Assembly: GCA_965237525.1 (NCBI GenBank)
Contig: CBDEFO010000007.1
Location: forward strand, 352,001-416,000
Source of the DNA: Candidatus Latescibacterota bacterium
Lineage (GTDB): Bacteria > Latescibacterota > CBDEFO01
Length of the DNA stretch: 64,000 nucleotides
Reading direction: 5' to 3'
Positions 21,952-63,016 of this stretch are shown here, piece by piece (position 1 is the first letter of the stretch; every line of letters begins with the position of its first letter). A program made the position numbers and the translations under genes. The notes under the pieces were generated by a model. It was not told the origin of the DNA. It made no database searches and was given only the letters and a program-made list of their open reading frames with translations.

Positions 21952-21970
21952 CCCGATAGATTCAATCGGG
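21952..21970 (+). repeat. 19-bp palindromic micro-element
   Basis: CCCGATAGATTCAATCGGG. Confidence 0.85.
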
Positions 21971-22070
21971 TGTGACCCGTGTGAACGCTCTTATAAGGAA
22001 CCACACATGATTGAGATCTCGGCTACGACCCCGTTTGCCGCACCGCCCACGTGGGCGGTACTGGAACGAC

Positions 22071-22128
22071 TGGACTTAGACGCTAAAATAAGCTTGGATT
22101 AAATTTAGCCAAACCGTTACCAACTTCT
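22071..22128 (+). repeat. Putative mobile-element end, copy 1
   Basis: TGGACTTAGACG(C/T)TAAAATAAGC.. shared with 29432-29489; truncates an ORF starting at 22007. Confidence 0.5.
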
Positions 22129-22523
22129 GCCAGTTGAAAACTTTAGCCCCAATGCCACACGATTGACCGAAAGGATTTTAAGGTTAGCTTGGGATGAACG
22201 TGTGCCTTACATGCCTTTCGTGTCTCTTCCCAAAAGTCAGATTGACTCAAGTTTCTATAATTGCTTATTTATCATAATCCTATATCTGATTGAGACCATC
22301 TGATTCGGCACAGAATAAATAAAGAAATAGAAAAATTTAAGCAAGACACTCCTGCCTTGCTGAATCAAAAACTTTGTACAACTCAACAGCTCTATGCTTA
22401 AACCTCTCTGCTTTGCCAATCATCTCTTCTACCTTATATCTCTGTGCCAAAATCTTCACAGCAAGCCCTGCAAGAGCATCTGACTTGTAGTCAGATATGG
22501 TTTTTCCTTTCGGTTTAATGTGT

Positions 22524-22797
22524 TTCCCTAACTTGTTGTTCTGTATTTAGATAAGGGCTATTGACTTTATTCTTGTTTAGTGTTATTTTATGGTATTCCC
22601 GCTCGTTCAGTAGAAATCTAGTAGAAGTTAGTAGAAGAATCAAGGTCGATCGGTTCGACAACTTCAAAGAAGTAATGCCAGAGGACAAGGCGGACCGCAG
22701 GGATATTCCAAAGGATCGATGACGACAACAGAAAGCGTTTCCATTCGTCCTTGGGATATAAGACCCGAGAAGACTAGAGGAAACAGTTTTATCTGCT
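22524..22797 (+). repeat. ~275-bp island-end repeat, copy 2
   Basis: Homologous to 14032-14307, including three AGTAGAA repeats and the IS3 remnant. Confidence 0.75.
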
Positions 22798-22858
22798 ACC
22801 CCAGCTTGCGTAATTGATGTCGCTTTCCAGGGAGGCAGTACAAAAGAGGAGGCTCAAC

Positions 22859-23521
22859 ATGGCAGGGACAGAAAAGGGGTTCTCGGAGAACGACAGGAAG
22901 GTGCTCGACGTCACGTTTAATTCGACAGGGGAGAGCGTCAACAACGCGTGGGGCTGGCGGATTCCCCGGAACCCGGATCGGGTGACAGGTGAGTTAACGG
23001 AAGCCGAGCAAGAGGTCACCGAGATGGCCCGGAAGGATACTCGCCAGACGCGCGAGGTCTCACGCGTGAAAACCTACACATACTGGGCGCCGTTCAACTA
23101 CGACAACGTAACCGTGGAGTTGGGACGTCCCGGGACTGGAGTCGAATTCAACATGGACGGTGCGGAATTAGACATCTATCCGTACGGTGCCATTACGATT
23201 GAGGAGGAAGAACCCATAGTCGCGGTCACCGTCATCGGGAGCGGCTGTTCTAACCAAGCCTGTGTGTGGTTAGAGGGGGAGCCCGTGGAATGGAAATATC
23301 CTCGGACCGGCGTGCGCATGATGAAACGCGACCTTTGGGGGATGCACGTACGCTACGACGCGTGGCGGTCCACGGACGAAAGCTGGAACGACGCTGGCCT
23401 GAGCAGCGCGCGATTTGATCTGCCGGACTGTAGGAAGGTCATCGTGGGTGGAAGCTCAGTGGGTGCAGACCCGCACTACTGCATGCGCATCATCCGGGTC
23501 GACGTGAAGGAGAACCTCTGA
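22859..23521 (+). CDS. Hypothetical protein
   Basis: Long ORF with AGGAGG RBS before ATG 22859; no recognised motif. Confidence 0.5.
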   Translation: MAGTEKGFSENDRKVLDVTFNSTGESVNNAWGWRIPRNPDRVTGELTEAEQEVTEMARKDTRQTREVSRVKTYTYWAPFNYDNVTVELGRPGTGVEFNMDGAELDIYPYGAITIEEEEPIVAVTVIGSGCSNQACVWLEGEPVEWKYPRTGVRMMKRDLWGMHVRYDAWRSTDESWNDAGLSSARFDLPDCRKVIVGGSSVGADPHYCMRIIRVDVKENL

Positions 23522-24071
23522 CGGGTGCGCTTAGATGTGTGTCTCAAAAGCTCGTTCCCACTTCCTCCGGGGAAGAGACAAGGTGACACGGTGATTGGGA
23601 GATTCCGGTCTTGAGGGGAAGAATTGTTTCGGCCACATGGCGGAGCTGTTGGACGTTGTCGTCAATCCGTTAGGCCGCTATGGAATGGCGAAAAGGAAAA
23701 CAGTGGACAACGCAGTGCGCCGCTTCCTGCTTCGCAACGCATGCCTTTATGCATGGCAAATCCGCAAGTAAAAGGGAGATTGAGAGATGGCTGAGAGACT
23801 CATCTTCCGAAATGCCGCAAGCCCGGCCATCGGCTCTGCACAGTATGACATGCAGTCATAAGATTTTCACATAAAGATGTCGTGATATGTGAATGGTAGG
23901 AGCCGTTTTCAACGGCGATGATTACTTGCATCGCTTCGTTGTAGGCTTCGCCTGTGCGCAGATAAAATCTGCTCCTACCGCTCACGTATTGGATGAATTC
24001 ATGACGACATTCACATTTTAAATCGGTATCAGTGGTTCACAGCGTAGAAATGTCTCGAGGAGGATCTTGCC

Positions 24072-25559
24072 TTGACTCACATCCACAATCAGAGCCCGCT
24101 CGTATCGAAGCATTTGTTCATCGACGATCGGTTTGTCGAGGAACTGTCTGGTCTGAAACGTCGCTTCCACCAAGCCGTCAAGTGTGATGAAAATCCCGTT
24201 ATCCGCGCAGAGAAGCCCTGGGAGAAGGACGCGGCTTTCATCGATTCGGCGATCGCCATCTACGACGAAGCGCAGGGCATCTTCCGAGCATGGTATCAGG
24301 GCGGAGCATGCTACGGTCCTGAGGATGGTTCGAACATGTGCTATGCCACCTCACAGGACGGGATCCACTGGGACAAGCCTTCGCTGGGTTTGATCGAGTT
24401 CGAAGGGAACAAGGACAACAACATCGTGCTGATGGCCAATTGCATGATGCACGATCCTGCACCGATTATGGATCGGATCGATCCCGACCCTCAACGTCGC
24501 TACAAGGCGGTCTGGTGGGGAGGCAGGAAGGACCCATCCCAGAAAAACGGGTGGCAGCTAGGCCATTGCGTCGGATTCTCTCCGGACGGTATTCATTGGC
24601 ACGAGCACCCGGAGAATCCGGTCTGGCCCGGGGACGCCGAAGTGGCGGTGCCCGCCGGCTTGGAGCGAACCTCGGGCAGATTTGCGATGTACAGCAGTGC
24701 TGACGGCTATGGGATGCGGGTTACCGGGCGGAGTGAAAGTGACGATTTCGTCCATTGGGACCTTCCGCCCAAGTTCCTCCTCCAGCCTGATGACGAAGAT
24801 CCTCCAGGCACTGAAGTCGCGGGTCTGGCGCCGATCAATTATGAGGGCACACAGCTCGGGATGCTCTGGATTTCCCGTAATCTGCCCGAGTTTACCAAGC
24901 AGGAATGGCAGCAGATTGTCGAACAGAATAAACGCCAGGGGTTCTTCGGTCCACCGATCGAGATGAACAATGTCCGATGCCGCGTGATGTACACCGAACT
25001 CGCCGCAAGCCCCGACGGTGTCAACTGGCAGCGCGTCCATCGCCAGCCTCTGTTCCCCTTCGGCCCCGAGGGGAGTTGGGATGAGTGTATCTGCCTGGCC
25101 GCGAGGCCGTTCGCACACGAGGACAAGATATACGTCTATTACACCGGCCATGGACGCACCAAACCCACGCCTGGCTGCACGGGACCTGAGAAGATCGGCC
25201 AGTGGAACGTCGAAACCGGTTTAGCTACGTTGCGCCTGGACGGGTTCGCCTCACTGGAGGCGTACTCATCGCCGGGCGTGCTCGTCACCAAGACGTTTCC
25301 TTTCAAAGGGACGGGCGTTGTGGTCAACACAGATGCAGGGAAGGGATCGGTTCGGCTGGAAATACTCGACGATCAAGGCCAACCGATCCCCGGGTTCACT
25401 AGGGAACAAGCCCGGCCGATTACGGGCAACCACCTGCGGGCGCGGGCAGCCTGGACCTCCGAGGCTGCCCCGACAGACCTTCGGGGCCGCCGCACCCGAT
25501 TGAAGCTTTATATAGAAAACGGCCATCTGTACTCGCTGTCGATCACTGCCGACGGATAG
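24072..25559 (+). CDS. Five-bladed beta-propeller glycoside hydrolase-like protein (GH32/43/130 clan-like)
   Basis: YATSQDGIHWDKPSLG, SPDGIHW and GLATLRLDGFASL motifs; GAGGAGG RBS. Confidence 0.75.
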   Translation: MTHIHNQSPLVSKHLFIDDRFVEELSGLKRRFHQAVKCDENPVIRAEKPWEKDAAFIDSAIAIYDEAQGIFRAWYQGGACYGPEDGSNMCYATSQDGIHWDKPSLGLIEFEGNKDNNIVLMANCMMHDPAPIMDRIDPDPQRRYKAVWWGGRKDPSQKNGWQLGHCVGFSPDGIHWHEHPENPVWPGDAEVAVPAGLERTSGRFAMYSSADGYGMRVTGRSESDDFVHWDLPPKFLLQPDDEDPPGTEVAGLAPINYEGTQLGMLWISRNLPEFTKQEWQQIVEQNKRQGFFGPPIEMNNVRCRVMYTELAASPDGVNWQRVHRQPLFPFGPEGSWDECICLAARPFAHEDKIYVYYTGHGRTKPTPGCTGPEKIGQWNVETGLATLRLDGFASLEAYSSPGVLVTKTFPFKGTGVVVNTDAGKGSVRLEILDDQGQPIPGFTREQARPITGNHLRARAAWTSEAAPTDLRGRRTRLKLYIENGHLYSLSITADG

Positions 25560-26034: not shown

Positions 26035-26165
26035 CCTATAACACGTGTACCCGCGGCTTCTGTCGCTTCGTTCCCTCCGGCCAACAGCCTGTGTCACGTC
26101 GGTTGCTGATAAGCACAACCGACGCGCCGATCCGCCTGCGCCAGTTCGGGAACAAACGTTATGGG
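26035..26165 (+). other. attC-like integron cassette recombination site
   Basis: CCTATAAC...GTTATGGG R boxes; pairing L arms TGTACCCG/CGGGAACA; internal hairpin CGTCGGTTG...CAACCGACG. Confidence 0.6.
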
Positions 26166-26186
26166 AAATGTTAAAGGAGGTACGCA

Positions 26187-27251: not shown

Positions 27252-27586
27252 GTTAGCACTTCCCATAACATTCAGAGAAACGATGGCCAAAATTTGAAAG
27301 ACCCAAAATGGGGGGAACGCCGTTATGTTCAGAGCGATTCTTTTGGTATATTTCAGTTTTCTGTCTGTTCATGCCGTGGCCTTTGAAACAAGCCTCGGAC
27401 CATTTGAGAGCCGTAAACGTTTTCGGTCTCCATCTGATTCTCTACGACTCCATAGCGCCCCATCTATCCACTCGTGGGTCATAAAGAATCTAAAAGTAAT
27501 ATCAGGTGCCGAAATTGCATACGATCAAAAACGCTTTAGGACTCTAGCAACAGGTCTATTTGTAGCTGAAAACTCGGGCAGCATTA

Positions 27587-29107
27587 GAAGCCTTGTGAAA
27601 AACCCTTAGATTCAGAAAATAGTATAAAACAAGCATTGATAAAGCAGCTCCGATGTATTATATTATGTTATTGATAATATTATACATGGAGGAAACAATG
27701 ACCCCACAAAAGCAGGAACAGACAAATCCGATGTTTCACTATTTTCAGATGGAGGATTTAGTTCCCGAGGATCATATCCTTCGTCAGATTGATGAGGCAG
27801 TTGATTTTTCATTTGTACGAGACGTTGTATCAGATTGTTATTGCCCTGACAATGGCAGACCCGGTATTGATCCTGAATTAGTTGTTCGAATGATCCTTAT
27901 TGGCTATCTGTATAATTTGAGTGAGAATCGGCTCTGTCAGGAAGTGGGGATGCATGCGGCATATCGGTTGTTTTGTCATCAGACATTTGATGATGCGGTT
28001 CCGGATAGGAGCACGATCAACAAGCTTCGCAATCACAAGTGGGCATCCAGTGGGTTGTTTGAACGGATAATGCGTCAGGTAGTCCAGTGTTGCATAGATG
28101 TCGGTCTTGTGAGCGGTAAACACCTTAGTGTCGACGGCACTCAGATACAAGCTGATGCTTCAGTGAAAAGTATTGAGCCGATAGAACCCCCTGTTTCTCT
28201 TGATGATTATCTCAAGGGAATCGGTTTTGAAGGTGATAAGACAAAGGGTAGGTCCGGGCATCCTCAGGATAAAGACTTTCATGGTGAAAAGTGGACGAAC
28301 CAAACACACCGTTCGACTACAGACCCCGACGCGCGCTTATACAGCAAATCGAAGGGCAAAGGGGCTTTTCTCTCGTTTATGGGCCATGATCTGATCGACA
28401 CAAAAAGCAGAGTAATCCTTGAGACTCAGGGCACGCAGGCGACAGGGACAGCAGAGCCCGAAAGTGCCCTTAAGATGGTAGATGACCTTGAAACATACAC
28501 CATGCCCAAAGACATTCAGACACTTAGTGCCGATACCGGTTACGGTTCTGGTAATTTTATCGCTGATGTACTTGACCGGGGAATCATACCCCATATTCCT
28601 CTGCGAGCCGATGAGAAGATTGAACCGATTCCTACATGGAAAAACAAGACAAATCCAGCACATATTCAGGCCGAACGGGATAGAAAAGTGCGAGAGGCGA
28701 AAGCCAGAAATCATGCACGGTCTATCTCATTAACAGCTGACTACAAACTCTCCCGGAGACTCCGTAAACGCAGTGAACATATCTTTGCTGAAGCCAGGCA
28801 ACAACACGGTATGGGACGAGCCCGTTACAGAGGACCAGCCTCACTGAATGAACAGTTGAATCTTGTTGCAACAGTACAGAATCTCAAGAGGCTTGTATCT
28901 TTCATAAGAAGGGGGAAAGCGTCTATGTGTGCCCTGTCTGTCAAAGACAGTGCATCCTGTTCTTCAAACAGCTCCTGTTCCTTGCTGACCAGAACTCTGA
29001 TAAGACTATTTTGCTTATTCCACAGCAAAACGATACGATATGCTACTCTTTGACCCATAATCGGCGCTTCAGACGCTGCCTGGGACATAACTATTTCACA
29101 AGGCTTT
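27587..29107 (+). mobile_element. IS1182-family insertion sequence, copy 1 (1521 bp)
   Basis: Terminal IRs GAAGCCTTGTGAAA / TTTCACAAGGCTTT; TA (or TTA) target duplication. Confidence 0.9.
27653..29053 (+). CDS. IS1182-family DDE transposase
   Basis: DUF772-like N-terminus (GRPGIDP, VPDRSTI); VDGTQIQADAS, ADTGYG and RSEHIFAEA. Confidence 0.9.
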   Translation: MYYIMLLIILYMEETMTPQKQEQTNPMFHYFQMEDLVPEDHILRQIDEAVDFSFVRDVVSDCYCPDNGRPGIDPELVVRMILIGYLYNLSENRLCQEVGMHAAYRLFCHQTFDDAVPDRSTINKLRNHKWASSGLFERIMRQVVQCCIDVGLVSGKHLSVDGTQIQADASVKSIEPIEPPVSLDDYLKGIGFEGDKTKGRSGHPQDKDFHGEKWTNQTHRSTTDPDARLYSKSKGKGAFLSFMGHDLIDTKSRVILETQGTQATGTAEPESALKMVDDLETYTMPKDIQTLSADTGYGSGNFIADVLDRGIIPHIPLRADEKIEPIPTWKNKTNPAHIQAERDRKVREAKARNHARSISLTADYKLSRRLRKRSEHIFAEARQQHGMGRARYRGPASLNEQLNLVATVQNLKRLVSFIRRGKASMCALSVKDSASCSSNSSCSLLTRTLIRLFCLFHSKTIRYATL

Positions 29108-29431
29108 TAGAGGAACCTACTATGGCGTGATTTCTTACCTTTCGGTAGAGGACTACAATAGGTTCAGGGGAGCAAGGAAGGATTTTGAATATGCGCAGAA
29201 AGATACTATTGAATATCTCCAATATCGGGCCGAAGGTACCGGCTTTATCCGTTTGGACAATCACGTCATATCAGTCGATCTTACAAGTCAGAACGCGGCT
29301 AATTTGCTTCAGGTAAGAGACCCAGTTGTTGAGTTCTGGATCAGAGTCATCGATAAAGATTCCAAGCCTATAGGCTGGTATCTTACTCATGATGAATTCG
29401 TAACCAAGGTACATCAGAGATCCTACACCAA

Positions 29432-32299: not shown

Positions 32300-32945
32300 G
32301 CGCCGACCGCCAAGAACACGATGCCCGCAAGCCCGACGAGGCGGGCTTCGCAGCAGAGCTACAGACGTGAGGTGCACAGGGTGGAGGTCACTCAACTTGC
32401 GTGAACGGACCTGCGAATTGGCCACAAAGGATCCCACGATGCCGGACAAACTCTTCAATTGTGAAGTGGTTCGTTGGCGTTTGCCGTAAGACGAGGCCGG
32501 GATGATTCGCGGCGAGAAAGAACTCGGTGAGCTTCCACCTGACATGATATATGTGTCGTACCCGAACGCGCATTTCTTCGGGGATGAAGTCGTGTTCTTC
32601 TACGACTTCGGTCCTCAACTCGATGCCTCCACAGACCCACCCTCCTGGCCGCCCTACCGAAAGATCGTCATCCGTCCGATCTCGTGGCTGCATGAGAAGT
32701 AATAACGAGAGAAGAGGTACTGCCAAGTATGTTACTCATTCGATAACAGTCACAGGACTGGACGTTTTGCGAAATTGCAATTTTTTTAGTTTTGTAGTTC
32801 TCTCAAAATGTTTGGATGACAGATGACACTTAAACGCCAAATTGAACAAGCGCAGGGAGATGCCGTAGTCTTAGACAGGCTCTATAGACAAGCCGTAGCC
32901 GCTGGAGAGGAGAGTACTTTTAAGGAGGCAATAGCTCAATATTTA

Positions 32946-34485
32946 AAAGGCTTGTGAAATAGTTATCTTGTAGGCAGCGTCTGAAACGCCAATTATGGGT
33001 CAAACAGTAGCATATCGTATCGTTTTGCTATGGGATAAGCAAAATAGTCTCATCAGAGTTCTCGTCAGCAAGGAATAGGAGCTGTTTGAAGAACAGGATG
33101 CACTCTCTTCGACAGATAGAGCACATGCAGATGCTTTCCCCCTTCTTATGAAGGACACAAGCCTCTTGAGATTCTGTACCGTTGCAACAAGATTTAACTG
33201 TTCATTCAGTGAGGCTAGTCCTCTGTAACGGGCTCGTCCCATACCGTGCTGTTGCTTGGCTTCAGCAAAGATATGTTCACTGCGTTTACGGAGTCTCTGG
33301 GAGAGTTTGTAGTCAGCTGTTAATGAGATAGACCGTGCATGATTTCTGGCTTTCGCCTCTCGCACTTTTCTATCCCATTCGGTCTGAATATGTGCGAAAT
33401 TTGTCTTCTTTTTTCCAAGTAGGAATGGGATCAATCTCTTCACCTGATCGCAGAGGAATGTGGGGTATGATCCCCCGGTCACATACATCGGCGATAAAAT
33501 TACCTGAACCGTAACCTTTATCGGCAGCAAGTGTCCGAACGTCTTCGGGAATGGTGTACGTCTCAAGGTCATCAACCATCTTAAGGGCACTTTCGGACTC
33601 TGCTGTCCCTGTCGCCTGTGTGCCCTGTGTCTCAAGGATTACTCTGCTTTTTGTGTCCCCGATAGATTCAATCGGGGATCAGATCACGGCCCATAAACGA
33701 GAGAAAAGCCCCTTTGCCCTTTGATTTCCTGTACAAGCGGGCGTCGGGGTCTGTAATCGAACGATGTGTTTGGTTCGTCCACTTTTCACCATGAAAGTCT
33801 TTATCCTGAGGATGCACAGACCTACCCTTTGTCTTATCACCTTCAAAACCAATTCCCTTGAGGTAGTCATCAAGAGAAACAGGAGGTTCTATCGGCTCAA
33901 TACTCTTCACTGAAGCATCAGCTTGTATCTGAGTGCCATCAACACTAAGGTGTTTACCGCTCACAAGACCGACATCTATGCAGCACTGGACTACCTGATA
34001 CATTATCCGTTCAAACAACCCACTCGATGCCCACTTGTGATTGCGAAGCTTGTTGATCGTGCTTCTATCCGGAACCGCATCCTCAAATGTCTGATGACAA
34101 AACAACCGATATGCCGCATGCATCCCCACTTCCTGACAGAGCCGATTCTCACTCAAATTATACAGATAGCCAATAAGGATAATTCGAACAACCAATTCAG
34201 GATCAATGCCAGGTGTGCCATTGTCAGGGCAATAACAATCTGATACAACGCCTAGTACAAATGAAAAATCAACTGCCTCATCAATCTGACGGAGGATATG
34301 ATCCTCGGGAACTAAATCCTCCATCTGAAAATAGTGAACAATCGGATTTGTCTGTTCCTTCTTTTGTGGGGTCATTCTTTCCTACATGTATAATATTATC
34401 AATAACATAATATAATACATTGGACCTGCTTTATCAATGCTTTTTTTATACTATTTTCTGAATCTAAGGGTTTTCACAAGGCTTC
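32946..34485 (-). mobile_element. IS1182-family insertion sequence, copy 2 (diverged; transposase frameshifted)
   Basis: Same terminal IRs in reverse; transposase broken into ORFs 33668-34375, 33370-33579 and 33000-33635; carries a 19-bp insertion. Confidence 0.9.
33658..33676 (+). repeat. 19-bp palindromic micro-element inserted in the transposase
   Basis: Absent at the equivalent site (GATC^GACAC) of IS copies 1 and 3. Confidence 0.95.
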
Positions 34486-34724
34486 TAAGAGATGCAGGTA
34501 TTCGACGGATTCGGTTTCACGATCTGTGTCACACTTACGCCAGCTTGTTGATCGCCCATGGGGAAAGTCCCAAGTATATCCAGAATCAGCTTGGACACGC
34601 GTCCATCACAACGACACTGGATCGGTATGGTCATCTGATGCCGGAGGTTCATCGGGAGGCAGCAAAGCGACTGGACGACCAGTTGTTTGGCGGGTTTAGG
34701 AGATTTACAGTAGAAAAACAGTAG
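34486..34724 (+). pseudogene. Tyrosine integrase C-terminal remnant
   Basis: RIRFHDLCHTYASLLI..GESPKYIQNQLGHASITTTLDRYGHL; the catalytic Arg of HxxR reads Cys; the N-terminus is missing. Confidence 0.85.
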
Positions 34725-40830: not shown

Positions 40831-40882
40831 CCTTTCCCTTCCTTTTTTCTGACAGGGCTGAGAGGAGTCGCCCTGTCTATCC

Positions 40883-40901
40883 CCTGATTAAGTCTATCGG
40901 G
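40883..40901 (-). repeat. 19-bp micro-element variant
   Basis: Reverse complement reads CCCGATAGACTTAATCAGG. Confidence 0.7.
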
Positions 40902-40914
40902 AGCTACTGCTTAC

Positions 40915-45896: not shown

Positions 45897-46020
45897 TCAG
45901 AGAGAGGCAATCTATGTGAGATTGCTTCCCCCCGATAGATTCAATCGGGGGTTGCTCGCAATGACACTGGGATTTGGTCGTCATGACATTGCTTGGCTTC
46001 GTCCTTTGGTCATTGCTAGG
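45897..46020. repeat. REP-like cluster (GAGATTGCTTC...CTCGCAATGAC) containing a 19-bp micro-element at 45931-45949
   Basis: Related to 8309-8403; CCCGATAGATTCAATCGGG lies inside it. Confidence 0.6.
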
Positions 46021-46035: not shown

Positions 46036-46073
46036 TCCGATCCCCAATTGATGCTGTTGGGGATTCAATCGGG
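46036..46073. repeat. Nested pair of 19-bp micro-elements
   Basis: Inner copy 46043-46061 sits within outer TCCGATC^GATTCAATCGGG. Confidence 0.75.
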
Positions 46074-49387: not shown

Positions 49388-49482
49388 AATGTGCGATCTG
49401 TTTGCAGATAACAAGTCGACAGATCGAGTATTTCAGGATTTAAGACAGTAGATGATCCGAAGAATGACTTCTCAAAACTGTC

Positions 49483-49501
49483 CCCAATAGAATCAATTGG
49501 G
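49483..49501 (+). repeat. 19-bp micro-element, A-T stem variant
   Basis: GTC^CCCAATAGAATCAATTGGG^GATC. Confidence 0.8.
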
Positions 49502-49655
49502 GATCAACATCCCATCTATATCATCGGGATGCCACCAAGGGATACCTTTCTTCCACTTTTTCTGTGCATCAAAAAGCTGGGACGGACAGACTTCACATAG
49601 AATGGGAACTACTTCTGGAAAGGTGTTCTCACAAGTATCAGCACTAACACCAGTC

Positions 49656-49674
49656 CCCGATAGGTTCAATCGGG
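49656..49674 (+). repeat. 19-bp micro-element
   Basis: CCCGATAGGTTCAATCGGG. Confidence 0.85.
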
Positions 49675-50047
49675 GGCTCCTGCCACCGAAAGAGAGACAT
49701 TATGGCGCAAATAGATTAATGACAGCAACAGCTCCTGATATGGCGCACGCCGTCGCTTGCGTCCTCCACCTGTGGCACGTTTGCGATTAGGTTGCAACGC
49801 AAAAGACTGTGGCAAAGCAAAAGACTGCTAACGACGTTCCACTAACACAGGCAACACTGATGCCAAAAGCTCAGATAAAGCCTCGAAACCTTATCAAGGT
49901 TAGGAAGATTTATCAGGGTAAGTTCCTTACGTAAGCTATTAAAAAAGACGAACCGATTACCTTCTGGAACATTTCAACAAAAGATTCTACGCAAGAAACT
50001 TGCCAAAGTCCAGTATTATTTCTTGGACTTTCTAATGAGGCCTACTT

Positions 50048-52526: not shown

Positions 52527-52651
52527 GAGGAGCAAGAAGACGGATATATTGGTCGGAGGGTTCGTGATCGTAGCTATCGGCCTTTTGGTCTTTACGATAG
52601 TGCTCAAACAGGGGTTGACATTAGGGCATTATCCGCTCTTTGTGGAGTTTA

Positions 52652-54172
52652 GAAGCCTTGTGAAAAACCCTTAGATTCAGAAAGTAGTATAGAACAAGCA
52701 TTGATAAAGCAGCTCCGATGTATTATATTATGTTATTGATAATATTATACATGGAGGAAACAATGACCCCACAAGAGCAGGAACAGACAAATCCGATGTT
52801 TCACTATTTTCAGATGGAGGATTTAGTTCCCGAGGATCATATCCTTCGTCAGATTGATGAGGCAGTTGATTTTTCATTTGTACGAGACGTTGTATCAGAT
52901 TGTTATTGCCCTGACAATGGCAGACCCGGTATTGATCCTGAATTAGTTGTTCGAATGATCCTTATTGGCTATCTGTATAATTTGAGTGAGAATCGGCTCT
53001 GTCAGGAAGTGGGGATGCATGCGGCATATCGGTTGTTTTGTCATCAGACATTTGAGGATGCGGTTCCGGATAGGAGCACGATCAACAAGCTTCGCAATCA
53101 CAAGTGGGCATCCAGTGGGTTGTTTGAACGGATAATGCGTCAGGTAGTCCAGTGTTGCATAGATGTCGGTCTTGTGAGCGGTAAACACCTTAGTGTCGAC
53201 GGCACTCAGATACAAGCTGATGCTTCAGTGAAAAGTATTGAGCCGATAGAACCCCCTTTTTCTCTTGATGATTATCTCAAGGGAATCGGTTTTGAAGGTG
53301 ATAAGACAAAGGGTAGGTCCGGGCATCCTCAGGATAAAGACTTTCATGGTGAAAAGTGGACGAACCAAACACACCGTTCGACTACAGACCCCGACGCGCG
53401 CTTATACAGCAAATCGAAGGGCAAAGGGGCTTTTCTCTCGTTTATGGGCCATGATCTGATCGACACAAAAAGCAGAGTAATCCTTGAGACTCAGGGCACG
53501 CAGGCGACAGGGACAGCAGAGCCCGAAAGTGCCCTTAAGATGGTAGATGACCTTGAAACATACACCATGCCCAAAGACATTCAGACACTTAGTGCCGATA
53601 CCGGTTACGGTTCTGGTAATTTTATCGCTGATGTACTTGACCGGGGAATCATACCCCATATTCCTCTGCGAGCCGATGAGAGGATTGAACCGATTCCTAC
53701 ATGGAAAAACAAGACAAATTCAGCACATATTCAGGCCGAACGGGATAGAAAAGTGCGAGAGGCGAAAGCCAGAAATCATGCACGGTCTATCTCATTAACA
53801 GCTGACTACAAACTCTCCCGGAGACTCCGTAAACGCAGTGAACATATCTTTGCTGAAGCCAGGCAACAATACGGTATGGGACGAGCCCGTTACAGAGGAC
53901 CAGCCTCACTGAATGAACAGTTGAATCTTGTTGCAACAGTACAGAATCTCAAGAGGCTTGTATCTTTCATAAGAAGGGGGAAAGCGTCTATGTGTGCCCT
54001 GTCTGTCAAAGACAGTGCATCCTGTTCTTCAAACAGCTCCTGTTCCTTGCTGACCAGAACTCTGATAAGACTATTTTGCTTATTCCACAGCAAAACGATA
54101 CGATATGCTACTCTTTGACCCATAATCGGCGCTTCAGACGCTGCCTGGGACATAACTATTTCACAAGGCTTT
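52652..54172 (+). mobile_element. IS1182-family insertion sequence, copy 3 (1521 bp)
   Basis: Near-identical to copy 1; same IRs; TA/TTA duplication. Confidence 0.92.
52718..54118 (+). CDS. IS1182-family DDE transposase
   Basis: Differs from 27653-29053 at a handful of residues. Confidence 0.9.
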   Translation: MYYIMLLIILYMEETMTPQEQEQTNPMFHYFQMEDLVPEDHILRQIDEAVDFSFVRDVVSDCYCPDNGRPGIDPELVVRMILIGYLYNLSENRLCQEVGMHAAYRLFCHQTFEDAVPDRSTINKLRNHKWASSGLFERIMRQVVQCCIDVGLVSGKHLSVDGTQIQADASVKSIEPIEPPFSLDDYLKGIGFEGDKTKGRSGHPQDKDFHGEKWTNQTHRSTTDPDARLYSKSKGKGAFLSFMGHDLIDTKSRVILETQGTQATGTAEPESALKMVDDLETYTMPKDIQTLSADTGYGSGNFIADVLDRGIIPHIPLRADERIEPIPTWKNKTNSAHIQAERDRKVREAKARNHARSISLTADYKLSRRLRKRSEHIFAEARQQYGMGRARYRGPASLNEQLNLVATVQNLKRLVSFIRRGKASMCALSVKDSASCSSNSSCSLLTRTLIRLFCLFHSKTIRYATL

Positions 54173-54976
54173 TAAGTCGATAGGAAATATAGGAGTGGGC
54201 GCGAAGGTGAAGTTGAGAGGCTTTGAGGTGGGAAAGGTCAAGCAAGTTGAGTTTTATCCTGAACCGCAAAAAGAGGGTGTCTTTTTTGTGGTAGAGTTGG
54301 CTATCAAGAACGAATATCCTGTTATTGAGGGAACAGTGGGAGAGGTTAAGGGAGGGGGGATTGTGGGCGATAGTTTTATAAATTTAGACGTTTCGAGTCA
54401 GGGGCACCTGCCGTTTAAGGCCGGTGCTACTGTGAAGGGTAAGGAAGCTCTAGATACCGGGACACTTATGGCCAAGGCAGTCACTATGCTGGAGAGGATG
54501 ACTGAAATGTCAGAGAGGATAAGGGACGCAGAAATTGGGGGTAGATTCAAGAAGTTTGTGGAGGTAGTTCACAAGATTTCAACAGATGTGGAGGGTTTGA
54601 GCAAGGACGCCCAGTCTATGCTCACAAGGAGCGAGTCCCTAATTGCGACCGTGGAGCCGGGCCTTAAGAAGTCTATAGATAAGTTGAATGAAGACCTGGA
54701 TTACTCGAAGGAGACGTTGACGAGTCTGAACGAAATATTAGGTGACAACAGTGAGAACATAAAGGATGCGCTGGAGGCTCTCCAGAGGAGTTTGAATCAG
54801 ATGGAGAAGTTGATGTCCAATCTGGACAATCTAACTGTAGAAAATAGAGCGCAAATAGATTCGACGCTCAAAAACATGGAGGATATTTCGGCGTCTTTCA
54901 AGGATGTGGCGAGGCATCCGTGGAAGATCATATTCGGGGGTGTGAAGGGAGGACAAGGGGACAGTCGTCAGTAGCT

Positions 54977-55014
54977 CCCGATTGAACCCCCAATTGAATC
55001 TATTGGGGGGCGGG
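54977..55014 (-). repeat. Nested pair of 19-bp micro-elements
   Basis: Inner CCCAATTGAATCTATTGGG (54989-55007) within a degenerate outer copy. Confidence 0.7.
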
Positions 55015-55077
55015 GGTAGACAGGCAAAGGCAGTAGGGGAGAACCTGTGTGTTTGCCCAGATGAAAGGAGACAAACG

Positions 55078-56563: not shown

Positions 56564-56602
56564 GGATCTATTACAAATGCAAATAAAGTTTCTCCACACT
56601 TT

Positions 56603-56845: not shown

Positions 56846-57593
56846 TGGAGCTAAGGTCGTAGATTTTCACTGTCACATAGGCACCTGCCAGCGCTTGCGT
56901 ATGTACGACGATCTGGAGGATTTGATAAGGGTTATGGATTCTGCCGGGGTAGATATGGCCTGTCTCTTTAACATCCACCGGGGGAATGCTAGCTTCGGCA
57001 ACGATGAAGTAGCCAAAGCTGTGGAGCGCTATCCGGACAGGTTCATAGGGTTTGCTTTCGTGACTCCGCACTACCCTGAGGAGGTGGAAAACGAGCTACT
57101 TAGGGTGATCGATAGACTCAAAATGAGGGCGATAAAGATATATCCTCCGTATTTTGGGAGGTCTGTGGAGGATCCCGCATGGGAAGGGATATTCAAGTTT
57201 GCAAATGAAAGGGGTTTAACGATTATATCGCACACAGATGTTACTGGCGGTCCCAGTAATCCGTCTTTCTTCGTGCCGTTAGCCCAGAAATATAAGAATG
57301 TAAAGTGGGTGTTGGGACATGCGGGCGTGACTCCCCCAGGGAGAATTGAGGCCATAGAGGCGGCGAGAAAGTGTTCAAATATCTATCTTGAGATATGTTC
57401 GTCTTACAGCACTTTCGGGTCTGTGGAATTCCTCGTAAACGGAGCGGGGGAGGATAGAGTGTTGTTTGGGTCTGACATGCCTCTTATGGATCCGAGGATA
57501 CATTTAGGGAGGGTTATGACCGCTGATATATCTGAGGAGGCAAGACACAAGGTTTTGGGAGAAAATGCCTTAAGGCTTCTGGATCTTGGCTGA
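56835..57593 (+). CDS. Amidohydrolase_2 family protein, copy 2
   Basis: Near-identical paralogue of 55805-56563. Confidence 0.9.
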   Translation: MAIDGAKVVDFHCHIGTCQRLRMYDDLEDLIRVMDSAGVDMACLFNIHRGNASFGNDEVAKAVERYPDRFIGFAFVTPHYPEEVENELLRVIDRLKMRAIKIYPPYFGRSVEDPAWEGIFKFANERGLTIISHTDVTGGPSNPSFFVPLAQKYKNVKWVLGHAGVTPPGRIEAIEAARKCSNIYLEICSSYSTFGSVEFLVNGAGEDRVLFGSDMPLMDPRIHLGRVMTADISEEARHKVLGENALRLLDLG

Positions 57594-58965
57594 GGATCTA
57601 TTACAAATGCAAATAAAATTTCTCCACACTGCCGATATTCACATCGGCGTAGAAAATCACGGGCTGATAGATCCTTCTACGGGTCTCCATACCAGGACGC
57701 AGGACTTTGAAAAGTGCTTGGATTTTGTGTATGAGAAGGGCATGGAGGAGGAGATCGATCTGGTGGCCTTTTCGGGAGACGCTTATAAGAACTGCCATCC
57801 CAGTCCGACTCATCAAAGGATCTTTGCTTCGTTTGTTAAGAAGTTCAGCGGTGCGGGCGTTCCTTTTGTGATGGTCGTGGGGAATCATGATATTCCTGGA
57901 GCCTTTGGGAGGGCGACTTCTATTGATATTTTTGGGACTTTGGGGATTTCAAAGGTGTCTGTGGCGACCAGTCCAAGGATCTTTAATATCGAGACAAAGT
58001 CCGGGCCTATTCAGGTCGCGTGTCTGCCTTGGCCCACTCAGAGCCGTCTTATGACAAAGGACGAATATAGTGGGCTGTCTTCTTTTGAGATTACCAGGGA
58101 GATTGAGAGCATATGCGCGGACATTGTTGAGAAATTTGCTGATGAATTGGACAAGCGAATTCCATCTGTGCTCCTAGCTCACGTGACTGCGGCTGACGCG
58201 GAATATTCGAAATCTGAAAGGACTGCGGTGATAGGAAGAGATCCTACGCTCTTGACAAGTGTTCTGACAAATAGTCAGTTCGATTACGTGGCTTTGGGGC
58301 ACATACACAAATTCCAGGATTTGAATCCAAGGGGAAGGCCCCACGTTGTGTATCCGGGGAGCGTCGAGCGCGTGGACTTCGGCGAGGAGAAGGAGGAAAA
58401 GGGATTCTGTCTGGTGACTATAAAAGATAAGAGCCAAAGGCCTGGCGTCAGAACTAAATCGGAGGATGAGAATCTTTCTCTTTTTTCGGCGGTTTCCCGT
58501 GAGAAGAAAGATAACGGACCTTTGGAAAGGGAGGTGAGATATGAGTTTATAGAGACTCCCGCAAGACCCTTTGTGACCATCATATCTGATGTGAAAAAGG
58601 GGGAAGACCCGACTCAGGTTATCTTAAGAGAGATAAAAAAGCACGACCTTAAGGATGCTGTTGTGAGGGTTCTTTACACTGTGTACGAGGACGTCATAGG
58701 TTCTGTGGATTATAGGGCGATAGATAAGGCTTTAAGGGACACTGGCGCTTTCTACGTTGCAGGGATCATTCCGAAAGTTGACATCCCTGAGAGGATCAGG
58801 AGGTCTGAGGTGTCCGAGGAGTTAGGCGTCCAGGAAGCTCTGGATAAGTACATTGACAACACTCCTGAGTTTGAACCTTTTCGTAAGGAATTAAAAAAGT
58901 ACGCCGCCCAGTTAGAGGCTGAGCTTGAAAGACAGGGTGAAAATGTAGACAGCAGCTCCCGATAG
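57586..58965 (+). CDS. sbcD: Exonuclease SbcCD subunit D (Mre11 family)
   Basis: LHTADIHIG, SGD, VGNHD, YVALGHIH and YPGS..R.DFGE. Confidence 0.93.
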   Translation: MAEDLLQMQIKFLHTADIHIGVENHGLIDPSTGLHTRTQDFEKCLDFVYEKGMEEEIDLVAFSGDAYKNCHPSPTHQRIFASFVKKFSGAGVPFVMVVGNHDIPGAFGRATSIDIFGTLGISKVSVATSPRIFNIETKSGPIQVACLPWPTQSRLMTKDEYSGLSSFEITREIESICADIVEKFADELDKRIPSVLLAHVTAADAEYSKSERTAVIGRDPTLLTSVLTNSQFDYVALGHIHKFQDLNPRGRPHVVYPGSVERVDFGEEKEEKGFCLVTIKDKSQRPGVRTKSEDENLSLFSAVSREKKDNGPLEREVRYEFIETPARPFVTIISDVKKGEDPTQVILREIKKHDLKDAVVRVLYTVYEDVIGSVDYRAIDKALRDTGAFYVAGIIPKVDIPERIRRSEVSEELGVQEALDKYIDNTPEFEPFRKELKKYAAQLEAELERQGENVDSSSR

Positions 58966-59002
58966 TCCCCGATAGGTTCACTCGGGGATAGGTTCAATCG
59001 GG
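58958..59002 (+). repeat. Nested pair of 19-bp micro-elements; supplies the sbcD stop codon
   Basis: Inner CCCGATAGGTTCACTCGGG at 58968-58986 in GTC^GAT context. Confidence 0.8.
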
Positions 59003-59196
59003 GGTAGACAGGAGCACCTTCTCCCTCCGTATACTGCGTAGTGCAGGGGTTGGGTTACCCAGCCCTCGGGGCGACCACTTCGTGCTTGTTGCCTCCACTC
59101 TCCTGCAAGGCAGGAAGTGCGCTGACCCCTTCAAATGTGCTATTTTTTGCTTTGTTAATCTTACCGACTGCTACTCTAAAGGGATAGTATATCACC

Positions 59197-62100
59197 ATGA
59201 TTCCTGTTAAGTTGTCATTGAGAAATTTCCTGAGTTACGGGGAAGATGTGCGCCCTTTAGATTTTTCAGGGTTTCATGTTGCGTGCCTTTCTGGGGAGAA
59301 CGGTCACGGAAAGTCAGCGCTTTTAGATGCTATGACCTGGTCTCTCTGGGGCCAAGCCAGAAAATCCAGAAGTAGGGGCGCAAACGAAGGCTTATTGAAG
59401 ATCGGTGCGTCTGAGATGAGGGTGGAATTTGAGTTCGATCTTGAGGAGCAGAGATTCAGAGTGATAAGATCCTTCAGGAGGGGAAAAGGGAGCGGGCGTC
59501 CGAGTTTGGAGTTTCAGGTCTATGATAACGATAAGGGCAAATACAGGGTCCTTTCCGATGTGTCGTCCATGAGAAGGACACAGGAGGAGATAGATGATGC
59601 TCTAAAGATGGATTACGATACGTTCATAAACTCTGCGTTTATACTTCAAGGACGGGCTGATGAGTTTACGAGGAAGACCCCGACAGAGAGGAAACAGATT
59701 CTGGCAGACATTCTAGGTCTCTCCAAGTACGATCTTCTCTGGGAGCTGTCGAGGTCTCACTATAATAAGTTGGATAATGAGATAGAAGGTTATTGTAGGG
59801 AGTCTCAAAGGATCGATGAGGAGCTTTCGCACAAGGATCTTTATAAAGAACAAATTGACGGGCTGACAGTCAGACTGTCGGAGCTGTCCAGAGGTATTGA
59901 GTCTCTGGAGAAGGTGTTTTCAGAACTTCGGGAAAAAAAGGGGGATCTAGAAAGGAAGCGAGAACAGGTAGAGGATTTGGAATCTGAACTTGACAGAATC
60001 CAGGACGAGATTGATGACATAAAGGGACAGATAGATTCATCCAGCGATCAGATCAGTGAATATGAGAAGATAATATGCAAAGAAGATGAGATTAAGAGTG
60101 ATATCTCCACGTACAATAGATTGATGGATCAGGAAAGAGAGTTTACCCAAAGACTTGGTAGGCTGAGAGATCTGGAATCTCGGAAAGCGGATGTCGATAG
60201 GAAGGTCGAAGAGGCAAAACATGAGGTTGAAAAGTGCAGGAATCTGTGGGAGGAGAGGCTCGGTTCAGCGGAAAACGTTTTAGATGAGGCAAAGGAGATT
60301 TTGAAGAGGGAAAAGGAGATTGCGAATGGGTATAAAGAGTTGATGAAGTCCAGGCGAGAAAATGAGAAGATGGAGGGTCTGAGAAGGAGTCAAGATGAGC
60401 TGCTAAAGGCGGAGCTGGAGATTCAAAGGAAAATCGAGAAGCTTAAGTCCGGGCTCGAGGTGGAGCTCGGGACCTTAAGGAATCAGATTACGGAATTGGA
60501 TAGTAAAGCAGATGCCCAAGAGCATCTCAAAGGGAGGTTGGAAAAGATCAGGCAGGAATTGGAACGCTTAGAGGTTTTAGAAAGTGAAAGTGAGAATATA
60601 AGGGATAAGGGCAGCGAATTGAACGTCAAGATAGATGGAGACATAAAGGGGGTCCAGGATTTGGAGAAGGAGATAGCGGAGGAGAACGATAAACTGGATC
60701 TGATCAAGGAGAGCCAAGATAGTTCCTGTCCGCTGTGTGAAAGCCATATAGATGAGGAAAAAAGGGAGAATATCGTAAGGAAGATGGAGGAGAAGATTGA
60801 AAAGGTGAAGGCGGAGATTGCGGTCATACAGGGGGAGTTAGAGGAGGATGAGAAAGAAAGATCGGAACTTAGGAGAAAGTATAGGGAGGCAAAGGAGGTC
60901 TTAGAGTCTCTGCCTTCGATCAGAAGCGGAGCGGCTCAGGCTGAGGCTTTGTTCAACGAAGCAGTCGAGGCTGAGGGTAAGATAGCAGAGCTTAAAGAAG
61001 ATGAGGAAGCGGTGCGAAGGAGGCTGGATGAGAGGGATTTTGCCCCAGAGGAGAGGGAGGATCTGGAGAAGGTGAAAAGACAGATCGAGAAGTTAGGTTA
61101 CAATACCCAAAAGCACGAGGAGATCGGGGAGACTCTGCAAAAGTTGAAGGGTTATGAGGCAGAAAAGGCGCGTCTGGATTCGACTTTAGAACGATACAAC
61201 GCTGCAAAGGAGGCGATACCTGGGATAAAGGAGGAGATAAGGACTGCCAAGCTATATCTAGATGAAAAAAAGTACGCCGAAAAGGAGCAGAAGGAAGTTG
61301 AGAGGGTTTTGGACGAGATCCAAAAGGTCGAATACGACAAGCGTGAGCACGAAAAGATAAGACTAGAGTTGGATAGCCTAAGCCAGGCCCCCGTACAGGC
61401 TGAGAGGCTTAGGGATGCGCGGGATAAGATAGATGCGGTAAAAGAGGTACTGAAGATATTGGAGAAGAGATTTGAAGATAGGATGAAAAGACAGGATGAG
61501 ACCAAAGGGAATGTCAAAGGATTGAAAGTGGAGATAGCGGGTACAGTAGATGTGGAGCAGAAGATCTCAGGGATTGAAAAGACGCTTCGGGATTCCAGAG
61601 TAAATAGGGAGAAGCTCCTTGGAGAACAGGGCAGCGCTCAGGCGAGGTACGATAAGTGTCTTGAACTTGAGGAGGAGAAAAAGGAGGTTACTGAGTCTTT
61701 AAGGAAGGCACAAGAGGAGAGGGATATTTACGATAAGCTTAGAAGGGCCTTCGGAAAGGATGGGATTCAGGCTCTCATAATTGAGAACGCTATCCCTGAA
61801 ATTGAAGATGAGGCGAACGATATACTGTCAAGACTGACAGATAATAAGACGCATATCTCGATCGAGTCTCAAAGGGGTCTAAAATCAGGAGGATTAAGGG
61901 AGACATTGGATATCAAGATCAGCGATGAGCTGGGGGAAAGGGATTACGAGCTTTACAGCGGGGGAGAGGCGTTCAGGACAAACTTCGCGCTGAGGATAGC
62001 CCTGTCAAAACTTCTGGCCCGGAGGGCGGGAACAAAGCTACGGACTTTAGTGATAGATGAGGGTTTCGGGACGCAGGATTCGGAGGGATTAGGACATCTG

Positions 62101-62244
62101 GTTGGAGCCATAGATAAGATAAGTAAGGATTTCGACAAGATACTTGTGGTTACGCATTTAGAGGAGTTGAAACGGGCTTTTCCCGTCAGGATTGAAGTGA
62201 GAAAAAATGCTCGATCTGGATCGGAATTCGAGATCGTTACTTGA
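59197..62244 (+). CDS. sbcC: SbcC/Rad50 SMC-family ATPase
   Basis: Walker A GENGHGKS, long coiled coil, CPLC zinc hook, YSGGE signature and Walker B IDEGFG. Confidence 0.93.
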   Translation: MIPVKLSLRNFLSYGEDVRPLDFSGFHVACLSGENGHGKSALLDAMTWSLWGQARKSRSRGANEGLLKIGASEMRVEFEFDLEEQRFRVIRSFRRGKGSGRPSLEFQVYDNDKGKYRVLSDVSSMRRTQEEIDDALKMDYDTFINSAFILQGRADEFTRKTPTERKQILADILGLSKYDLLWELSRSHYNKLDNEIEGYCRESQRIDEELSHKDLYKEQIDGLTVRLSELSRGIESLEKVFSELREKKGDLERKREQVEDLESELDRIQDEIDDIKGQIDSSSDQISEYEKIICKEDEIKSDISTYNRLMDQEREFTQRLGRLRDLESRKADVDRKVEEAKHEVEKCRNLWEERLGSAENVLDEAKEILKREKEIANGYKELMKSRRENEKMEGLRRSQDELLKAELEIQRKIEKLKSGLEVELGTLRNQITELDSKADAQEHLKGRLEKIRQELERLEVLESESENIRDKGSELNVKIDGDIKGVQDLEKEIAEENDKLDLIKESQDSSCPLCESHIDEEKRENIVRKMEEKIEKVKAEIAVIQGELEEDEKERSELRRKYREAKEVLESLPSIRSGAAQAEALFNEAVEAEGKIAELKEDEEAVRRRLDERDFAPEEREDLEKVKRQIEKLGYNTQKHEEIGETLQKLKGYEAEKARLDSTLERYNAAKEAIPGIKEEIRTAKLYLDEKKYAEKEQKEVERVLDEIQKVEYDKREHEKIRLELDSLSQAPVQAERLRDARDKIDAVKEVLKILEKRFEDRMKRQDETKGNVKGLKVEIAGTVDVEQKISGIEKTLRDSRVNREKLLGEQGSAQARYDKCLELEEEKKEVTESLRKAQEERDIYDKLRRAFGKDGIQALIIENAIPEIEDEANDILSRLTDNKTHISIESQRGLKSGGLRETLDIKISDELGERDYELYSGGEAFRTNFALRIALSKLLARRAGTKLRTLVIDEGFGTQDSEGLGHLVGAIDKISKDFDKILVVTHLEELKRAFPVRIEVRKNARSGSEFEIVT

Positions 62245-62246
62245 TG

Positions 62247-62284
62247 CCCAATCCCCGATAGACTTAATCGGGCATTCCATTGGG
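62247..62284 (+). repeat. Nested pair of 19-bp micro-elements
   Basis: Inner CCCGATAGACTTAATCGGG (62254-62272); removing it leaves a 19-nt CCCAATCCATTCCATTGGG. Confidence 0.75.
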
Positions 62285-62308
62285 GGGAAGCAAGGAGGAA
62301 AAGCGATC

Positions 62309-63016
62309 ATGGCTGCTCTTTCAAGATGGATGATTCTGGTGCATCTTGTTTGTCTGGCAGTCTCTTGCTATGCACAGGATGAGCGGCACGGCCGCTTTGT
62401 CGGGGAGGATGGCAACAAGTCCCCGATTGAATCTATCGGGGATCATATGAAAAGGGACGCCGGGATGGTACAGATCGAGAATTTCAAGATAGACAGGTAC
62501 GAGTATCCGAATATCGTGGGGGAATATCCGCTTTATAATGTGAGTTGGTACGAAGCTCAGGCTAAGTGTAAATCTAAAGGGAAACGCCTATGTTCTGAAG
62601 CAGAATGGGAAAGAGCTTGCACCGGGATGAATAATCACGTGTATCCTTATGGGAACAGTTTCGATGAAGACAAGTGCAATACGCCCCATCAAGTGGATGG
62701 AAACTGGGGACGCGACAGGGGTATTGCAAAGATAGGAAAGTGGAAAGAATGTGTCAGCGACTATGGTGTCTATGATATGAGCGGGAATGTGTGGGAGTGG
62801 GTCGATGGGGTCTACTCTTCAAGGGAGGGATGGCGTGTGGTCAAGGGGGGATCGTGGTTTCAAAACGTGAACTTCGCGACGTGTTCTGCCAGATACGGAA
62901 GATATCTGACTCCAGATTACAGGCTGGATCTGATAGGCTTTAGATGTTGTCAGTCCCCGATTGAACCTATCGGGGATCAGTCTGTAGCGGTAGAAACAGA
63001 TGGGGACCAGAATTAA
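62309..63016 (+). CDS. FGE-sulfatase (SUMF1/EgtB/PvdO) domain exported protein
   Basis: Signal peptide; RLCSEAEWERAC, GVYDMSGNVWEW and IGFRCC; AGGAGG RBS. Confidence 0.88.
   Translation: MAALSRWMILVHLVCLAVSCYAQDERHGRFVGEDGNKSPIESIGDHMKRDAGMVQIENFKIDRYEYPNIVGEYPLYNVSWYEAQAKCKSKGKRLCSEAEWERACTGMNNHVYPYGNSFDEDKCNTPHQVDGNWGRDRGIAKIGKWKECVSDYGVYDMSGNVWEWVDGVYSSREGWRVVKGGSWFQNVNFATCSARYGRYLTPDYRLDLIGFRCCQSPIEPIGDQSVAVETDGDQN
62422..62440 (-). repeat. 19-bp micro-element inside a CDS
   Basis: GTC^CCCGATTGAATCTATCGGG^GATC; translated as SPIESIGD. Confidence 0.85.
62956..62974 (-). repeat. 19-bp micro-element inside a CDS
   Basis: GTC^CCCGATTGAACCTATCGGG^GATC; translated as SPIEPIGD. Confidence 0.85.

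Follow-up and report, generated by a model that had tools for sequence, protein, structure and literature searches.

A very small, recently active mobile hairpin in a Latescibacterota genome, with junctions that suggest copying from existing copies

Locus and genomes

A palindromic repeat of about 20 nt occurs many times in a 64,000-nt stretch of a Candidatus Latescibacterota bacterium genome (contig CBDEFO010000007.1, positions 352,001 to 416,000), which we call the window. The repeat is genuine: a mobile hairpin of very small size that has been active recently. The source assembly, G000, comprises 4.58 Mb in 8 contigs and is 96.6% complete. We compared it with G001, a single-contig congener that is approximately 95% identical to G000 over the window, using 2.8 of the 4.54 Mb of G001. 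An original prediction, made from the letters of the window, described a family of 19-bp insertions with a TC^GA target preference. Its observation is confirmed and its interpretation is partly supported.

At up to 3 mismatches, the window contains 19 strand-matches to the consensus versus a mean of 0.11 in shuffled sequence. These include all 12 stand-alone or inner copies that had been predicted, at the predicted coordinates, and the four outer copies of nests (a copy within a copy) are visible as well. One copy lies at 33656..33678 (+) in an IS5/IS1182-type transposase gene. It is a clean net gain of 19 at TC^GA that frameshifts the gene and supplies a stop codon, leaving separate open reading frames (ORFs) at 33668-34375 (DUF772) and 33000-33635 (DDE). 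The host insertion sequence (IS; 32943..34488, minus strand) is approximately 92% identical to a 134-copy family in G000. Paralogous IS copies without the hairpin show the empty allele, most of them with a 476-aa open frame. Since the insertion frameshifts the transposase, the direction of change at this site is fixed as a gain.

The other copies are as follows, given as 23-nt units or whole nests. A stand-alone copy with the consensus core lies at 21950..21972 (+; the 19-mer 21952-21970 plus 2 nt on each side), for which no ortholog pair was recovered in the compared part of G001. Two further copies sit within other repeats and are common to G001: a decayed copy at 40881..40903 (-) in a heptamer-type repeat (CCTGTCTA..CTACTG), and one at 45929..45951 (+), with CC..GG ends, in an arm (GAGATTGCTTC..TCGCAATGAC) of a repetitive extragenic palindrome (REP) of the CGTC or Ssn-related motif (SRM) type. 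The nest at 46036..46073, of no assigned strand, consists of an outer copy enclosing an A-T variant on the minus strand (46043-46061), and 45 nt are absent here in G001. Of the closely spaced pair at 49481..49503 (+; an A-T variant at positions 4/16) and 49654..49676 (+; a GG-loop variant), G001 matches the left part of the former and the right part of the latter, with the alignment broken to the right and to the left, respectively. A second A-T variant nest lies at 54977..55014 (-; inner copy 54989-55007), where G001 has a single copy. The GTC^GATC context holds at 33658, 49483, 62422 and 62956, and TC^GAT at 58968 and 46043.

The remaining copies lie around an sbcD-sbcC-like pair (57586-62244, plus strand), a hairpin-processing nuclease family, and in an FGE-sulfatase-like ORF (62207-63016). 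One nest is at the sbcD/sbcC junction (58958..59002, plus strand; inner copy 58968-58986), where G001 and sequencing run X4 are 10 nt shorter. Another, common to G001, is just past sbcC (62247..62284, plus strand; inner copy 62254-62272 in an A-T-variant outer copy). The proximity to these genes is probably a coincidence. Within the FGE-sulfatase-like ORF, the copy at 62420..62442 (-) is an in-frame gain read as SPIESIGD, with a net gain of 15 and 11 target bases replaced; a copy near the 3' end of the ORF, at 62954..62976 (-), is common to G001.

The hairpin unit

Among 518 copies in G000, 94% have C at position -1 and 93% have G at position +1. At positions -2/+2, 417 of 543 de-duplicated copies (the set used for covariation) have complementary bases versus 244 expected, and there is no covariation further out. 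The same positions are paired in 41 of 43 distinct metagenome contexts, 33 of which read CC..GG. This makes a 23-nt hairpin, YC-CCCGATAGATTCAATCGGG-GR, the best description of the unit. The predicted 19-mer stands, but the unit extends 2 conserved, paired nucleotides on each side, and the TC^GA that had been taken for a target mostly belongs to the unit itself. The conserved unit spans 21-23 nt, or 27 nt with a tail that some copies carry.

The predicted fold has an 8-bp stem and a 7-nt loop. A 3-nt loop closed by an inner G-C pair had been proposed, but that pair neither forms in the predicted fold nor covaries. The compensated stem, however, holds: positions 4/16 are G-C in 444, A-T in 33 and T-A in 8 of the 543 copies, with the A-T swap present at 46043, 49483 and 54989 in the window. 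The two compensated forms may each descend from one event.

Across G000, there are 166, 390, 518 and 597 sites at 0, 1, 2 and 3 mismatches, respectively. A 21-nt pattern has 249 exact matches in G000 and 210 in G001, at partly different sites, and none in 59 other genomes of the phylum. The core is also found in unrelated phyla, as sequence matches: four groundwater-type 'Deltaproteobacteria' genomes have 37, 12, 9 and 6 matches (up to 1 mismatch), an Anaerolineales genome has 3, and two further records have one each. The hairpin is present in 96 metagenome stretches. There were no exact matches in viral contigs, and an Rfam scan of the window gave no match. Among sequencing runs with the hairpin, no RNA run was listed; contigs from runs do not reveal rare alleles.

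Using a simple, crude ORF caller, 401 of the 518 G000 copies lie outside long ORFs and 62 lie in frame in the interior of ORFs of at least 150 aa. Metagenome contigs from other organisms (L221, L259, L280, L283 and L294) also carry the hairpin within ORFs, where it encodes PRLNLSG, PDRFNRG and PPIDSIGG. Copies show no orientation bias relative to GC skew (339 vs 324), the skew being weak in both genomes, or relative to transcription (35 vs 29 in ORFs; 160 vs 170 between co-directional ORFs). They are not enriched between convergent genes (62/452 vs 13.5% of intergenic length).

Comparison of orthologous sites

Both flanks could be placed in the other genome for 309/596 G000 copies and 257/314 G001 copies. 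Among analysable copies, 136/292 in G000 and 132/250 in G001 are shared unchanged at orthologous sites, while the full copy is absent between its anchors in the other genome for 97/292 and 57/250; the remainder differ in nesting. A contig from a second study (X2) spans the four copies from 58968 to 62956, as does X1, though X1 may be the source sample. Because orthologous copies are shared with an independent assembly and a second-study contig spans copies, the hairpin is not an adapter or assembly artefact. The predicted character of a very small, non-autonomous and recently mobile unit without the GTAG tag of classic REPs is thus supported.

To examine gains, we took net length differences of +15 to +30 with anchors no more than 45 nt away, which gave 88 events, and removed repeats of multicopy units, which left 83 independent gains (56 occupied in G000 and 27 in G001). 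Net length minus 23 has peaks at -4 (n=26) and +4 (n=16), i.e., at +19 and +27, and is never 0. Relative to the 23-mer, 51 of the 83 gains lose 2-8 target bases and 54 show some loss. In the 26 net +19 gains, the four junction bases are changed in 23 cases, versus a background divergence of 5.8%, and the ±2 positions are paired in 24/26 occupied but only 12/26 empty alleles. The empty alleles read TCGA in 2 cases and YCGR in 4, so the proposed TC^GA preference is not supported, and neither is clean 19-bp presence/absence, for which only 3/26 (one being 33658 in the window) qualify. Gains in coding genes add 5-9 codons, and the frame is kept by a variable length of replacement.

Longer gains often have a tail: CCTG or CTTG is present on 11 of 21 gains of +26/+27, and the +4 class is mostly tailed. 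We rejected staggered-cut target-site duplication as a rule, as it fits only 3 of the 16 +4 gains. Based on motif rules for the host class, 51/83 gains are in pre-existing repeats (23 in the hairpin itself, 22 in CGTC/SRM arms, including those of a miniature transposable element with inverted repeats (MITE), 4 in heptamer arrays and 2 in GTAG REPs), and 32/83 are in unique DNA.

Two other palindromes occur in G000. One, a sibling of the hairpin that is shorter and has a 3-nt loop (CCCCGATTTAATCGGGG, approximately 17 copies), is itself a target at C1:48713 and C4:403017, and an additional palindrome family, GGGCAGACACACGGGTCTGCCC, has 22 exact copies. Separately, contig C2:17900-25400 duplicates part of C4:542400-549700 (including prfA), which is likely assembly redundancy.

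Donor copies

The next question is whether new copies resemble old ones beyond the unit. For this, we used 499 G000 copies after de-duplication, outside larger duplications. At least 6 nt on both sides are shared with another copy in 114 of the 499 (null mean 23.6, maximum 41). Common host repeats explain part of this flank sharing, so internal variants are the discriminating test. Variants and flanks are linked: for 36 of 86 non-consensus copies, the partner with the best-matching flanks carries the same internal variant, versus 3.7% (maximum 17.8%) under shuffling. We also considered local hopping, as variant sharing seemed enriched at 2-10 kb (27 vs 5.3), but the signal did not persist once duplicated units and one paralogous cluster were taken out (14 vs 9.8; 42/300 shuffles as high).

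The MITE is approximately 265 bp long, with 53 copies in G000 and 26 in the compared part of G001, and has two SRM arms, each of which is either empty or filled by an arm-specific hairpin variant; all four empty/occupied combinations exist. In 3 of 7 orthologous MITE pairs (6 distinct G000 loci), the hairpin differs in place by the same TCGT to TC[19]GAC change, and private single-nucleotide differences 13-14 nt away are retained. In a tree of 72 MITE copies built with the patches excluded, occupancy requires 24 changes versus a shuffled mean of 22.8, i.e., it is unclustered, and at least 5 changes are forced by well-supported branches.

As for the MITE itself, it has CCCGA..TCGGG ends and makes YTAR duplications, carries an SRM (CGTC-REP) pair (e.g., C4:159395 and C4:74076), and is mobile, as many of its G001 sites are empty in G000. 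At G001 C1:549662 and C1:559005 (the L025/L029 region), the hairpin is at the usual MITE site in opposite orientation or hybrid form, which suggests loop inversion in place or independent filling.

Gains in unique DNA can be used to ask whether the target resembled the donor beforehand. The test was limited to 28 of the 32 such gains, those with at most 8 new bases per side, and local random control sites were given the same new bases. Target-derived flanks match a donor copy over a mean of 6.7 nt, versus 3.0 nt at nearby random sites (p=6e-6), so target-donor similarity is above chance.

Enzymes and repair genes

The original prediction found no enzyme candidate in the window, and our scan of 24 window ORFs agrees. 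Genes flanked by copies had been suggested as a place to look; 43 ORFs are flanked on both sides, and none was nuclease-like by eye, though these were not scanned against libraries. For the whole genomes, a PF01797 search found no RAYT (a REP-associated tyrosine transposase) in G000 or G001, but NF047646 found one intact RAYT-like ORF in G000 (C8:1476118-1476648, plus strand; E=2e-17, below the cut-off), and we therefore withdrew the reading that the genome has no RAYT. The gene is of the subclass 2.4 type, having its own GTAG REPs (GTAGGGGC..) around it and one in frame inside it, an arrangement given for that subclass in the consulted part of PMC6006769. The orthologous G001 site lacks the gene, and it was found nowhere else in G001.

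An Ssn-like small GIY-YIG gene is present in G000, and a search of G001 for small GIY-YIG genes gave no match. IS110 has one match in G000 and none was found in G001. Reverse transcriptase (RT) domain searches found nothing in G000, G061 (a groundwater 'Deltaproteobacteria' genome carrying the hairpin core) or G063, two ORFs in G001 and one in G062. With RAYT, Ssn and IS110 matches only in G000 and RT matches only in G001, the two lineages have none of the searched mobility enzymes in common, with recent loss possible. Of the host repair genes, MutS and DprA were found in both genomes, while Ku and RecT had no match in either.

The IS of the abundant window transposase (DUF772 plus DDE, YTAR-type flanks) occurs in the window at 27584-29109 and 52649-54174 (+) as well as at 32943-34488 (-), with 134 full-length copies more than 95% identical in G000 and 2 copies at 98% in G001, a very recent burst that makes up approximately 4% of the G000 genome. 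We rejected a link to the hairpin: the IS ends are unrelated to it and 0/134 full copies hold it. Inverted-repeat replacement by IS1272, in the portion of PMC5678879 available to us, concerns insertion of a full IS.

How the hairpin spreads

We propose that the element is a selfish 23-nt hairpin which multiplies when short patches are copied from an existing copy under the guidance of microhomology, and we give this a probability of roughly 0.6. Copying is a likelier account than cutting by a transposase at a fixed site because gains replace target bases and carry another copy's flanks. A single-stranded donor would fold at the stem, bringing its two flanks together, and approximately 5-12 nt on each side would pair with a similar target: the hairpin's own loop, CGTC/SRM arms, heptamer arrays or chance look-alikes. 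The single strand might come from a replication gap or template switch, from transforming DNA, from nuclease fragments or from RNA. Host repair or replication synthesis would then fix the patch, with the terminal base pairs and nearby donor bases overwriting the target. The net length (+19, +20, +27 and so on) would be inherited from the donor's register, and selection would retain multiples of three in genes. The element's loop (GATAGATT) is similar to frequent joined flanks (GATC|GATT); this likeness would account for the nesting at the outer copy's TAGA that most self-nests show.

A stronger version would make the hairpin an enzyme-free parasite, whose fold alone turns copies into donors that convert look-alikes via host repair, each new copy adding flanks and so widening the range of targets, with spread across several phyla. 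We regard this version as tentative. As for origin, a tagged CGTC/SRM-type REP arm is the likely parent, having lost its GTCAT tag: G061 has 46 tagged arms (CCCGATAGANNCATTCGGG-N-ATGAC) with the same core.

Several points weigh against copying, and some of them favour a rival. The occupied/empty comparison involves two genomes only. The MITE tree is largely star-like, so gain versus loss by conversion is not fixed for each case. In nine of the 28 unique-site gains, the donor match does not exceed chance, with 3 of the nine lacking any donor that accounts for the new bases; target-donor similarity would likewise increase under a fixed target preference. MutS, present in both genomes, normally restrains such copying. 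Clean, blunt insertion accounts for three of the net +19 gains (TC^GA, CC^GG and AC^GT), and the empty net +19 sites have C at -1 in 20/26 and a CG core in 9/26, so an enzyme could cut at C^G while conversion only amplifies its products. In its full form, this rival has a dedicated recombinase or nuclease inserting a fixed unit at C^G, with replacements being later or secondary; the core's occurrence in unrelated phyla also suits it. However, the altered junctions of the other 23 gains far exceed background, and the variant-flank linkage, the scatter on the MITE tree and the lack of a nuclease-like gene (by eye) among the flanked ORFs make it improbable. Finally, 4-nt direct repeats flank the 23-mer in 24/499 copies (null 3.6), and the local MITE also begins CCCGA and ends TCGGG, as would suit a micro-MITE mobilised by a DDE enzyme, or what a DDE element leaves behind as a footprint or after collapse. 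But 20 of the 24 repeats are CAAG, CAGG, TTGA or their complements, duplication fits few +4 gains, and hairpin gains do not show the YTAR duplications which the MITE makes. In the empty alleles, the host repeat or the transposase frame is intact, which also speaks against the predicted footprint of a larger excised element, and the abundant IS ends are unrelated. We consider a DDE origin very improbable.

The rival with the most in its favour is a hairpin-directed single-strand enzyme, the G000 RAYT-like HUH protein or the Ssn-like GIY-YIG protein, which would cut and join or release a single-stranded hairpin and be required for its spread, with flank carry-over explained by cuts a few bases outside the stem. 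This also weighs on the copying account, as a hairpin copy lies 70 bp downstream of the intact RAYT-like gene, nested in its downstream GTAG REP, the Ssn-like gene (C4:479893-480114, minus strand) lies between inverted SRM repeats, and both genes could have been lost recently from G001. Further support comes from the tagged SRM-type arms of G061 that match the hairpin core, from 1-13 Y1 matches in each of four other carrier genomes, from the tail on many +26/+27 gains, and from SsnA, which cuts single-stranded DNA beside such hairpins according to the section consulted of PMC11893778. Yet G001, a single contig, has 27 lineage-specific copies and neither gene was found there. A GTAG foot is present in 28/499 copies (94% have none) and 4/83 gains, and a GTCWY tag is near 8/499; both genes are flanked by other, tagged repeats; gains share no constant target word, and copies show no preferred orientation relative to GC skew. 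E. coli-type RAYT cleaves by a CT rule, which we tried and rejected: 16 of 26 lost 4-mers contain CT/AG, but 6/15 outside self-nests do (hand count), which is near chance. The HUH/RAYT mobilisation suggested by the original prediction is possible, but we do not favour it, the one G000 RAYT-like gene being outside the window and having its own REPs. Overall, we think a required single-strand enzyme unlikely. Somewhat less probable again is an RNA route, reportedly proposed for small dispersed repeats (SDRs) of cyanobacteria, in which read-through transcripts with the hairpin and its flanks pair with a target at a nick and act as template for reverse transcription or repair. Such a route, too, would carry flanks over and lose a variable amount of target, and G001 and G062 have RT-domain ORFs. 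However, no RT matched in G000, G061 or G063, copies have no bias relative to transcription, and G-T wobble-compatible changes have no one-strand excess.

Relation to known repeats

The closest parallel appears to be the SDRs of Nostocaceae, reportedly described by Elhai et al. in 2008 as units of approximately 20-27 nt with a compensated stem and no coding capacity, self-nested, found in heptamer arrays and minitransposons, and recently mobile. No enzyme is known for them. Judged by these features, the hairpin is alike in its dispersed 21-23 nt unit (518 copies), compensatory stem changes, nesting in its own copies and in other repeats, and recent mobility seen at empty orthologous sites. It differs from SDR5, which inserts precisely in HIP1 (PMC4390886, in the part available), in that few of its net +19 gains are clean and most gains overwrite target and carry donor flanks. 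It works like the cyanobacterial SDRs and is of an SDR-like kind, a comparison by features and not by sequence, but we do not file it as an SDR, since it lacks the precise insertion of SDR5. SDRs are treated further in PMC5861425, PMC2884548 and PMC3116915, each consulted in part.

CGTC REPs and Ssn-related motifs (PMC3733652 and PMC11893778, in extracts) share with the hairpin a GC-rich 8-bp stem beginning YCCCGA, and SRM arms are its frequent hosts. However, their HGTCWY tag 5' of the stem is rare in G000 (it is present on the related G061 arms), the loop is 7 nt rather than 4-5, there are no dimers, and the hairpin inserts into other repeats and genes. It also does not flank the ssn-like gene, whereas other SRMs do. 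GTAG REPs and REPINs with RAYT, or TnpA_REP (PMC6006769 and PMC3116915, in extracts), likewise form hundreds of short hairpins mostly outside genes, and G000 has a RAYT-like gene. Unlike them, the hairpin mostly lacks the GTAG foot and a cognate flanked gene, and is not enriched between convergent genes.

Rickettsia palindromic elements add approximately 40-50 codons. The hairpin resembles these elements, which PMC3733652 mentions, in lying in frame within coding genes, as at 62422, but adds far fewer codons and keeps the frame by replacement length, not by a fixed unit length. Compared with bacterial MITEs, it is also non-autonomous with terminal inverted repeats, but it is far shorter, has no constant-length target duplication and loses target bases. 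Among the papers that our literature search listed, none dealt with this repeat or with replacement of junction bases by SDR-type elements, though Elhai et al. 2008 may already discuss it and the repeat tables of PMC3733652 or PMC11893778 could hold the core; SDR terms were not found in PMC3184786.

Significance

How bacterial repeats of 20-30 bases multiply is a long-standing question: gene conversion was reportedly floated for REPs in a 1988 review, and SDRs are said to date from 2008. The comparison of two close genomes, together with a MITE whose two sites were filled independently, provides junction-level evidence of copying with donor flanks over a similar target. The value of the finding is this evidence for conversion-type spread, and the question can now be put as a simple donor/target assay. 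The hairpin is also a source of coding variation, as it disrupts genes (such as the window transposase) and adds peptides of 5-9 residues. If it does spread without an enzyme of its own, it would be a minimal mobile element with no element-specific protein, and would explain SDR-type movement. Should the folding of a hairpin allow an insertion to be delivered with very short homology arms, this would be relevant to oligonucleotide genome editing.

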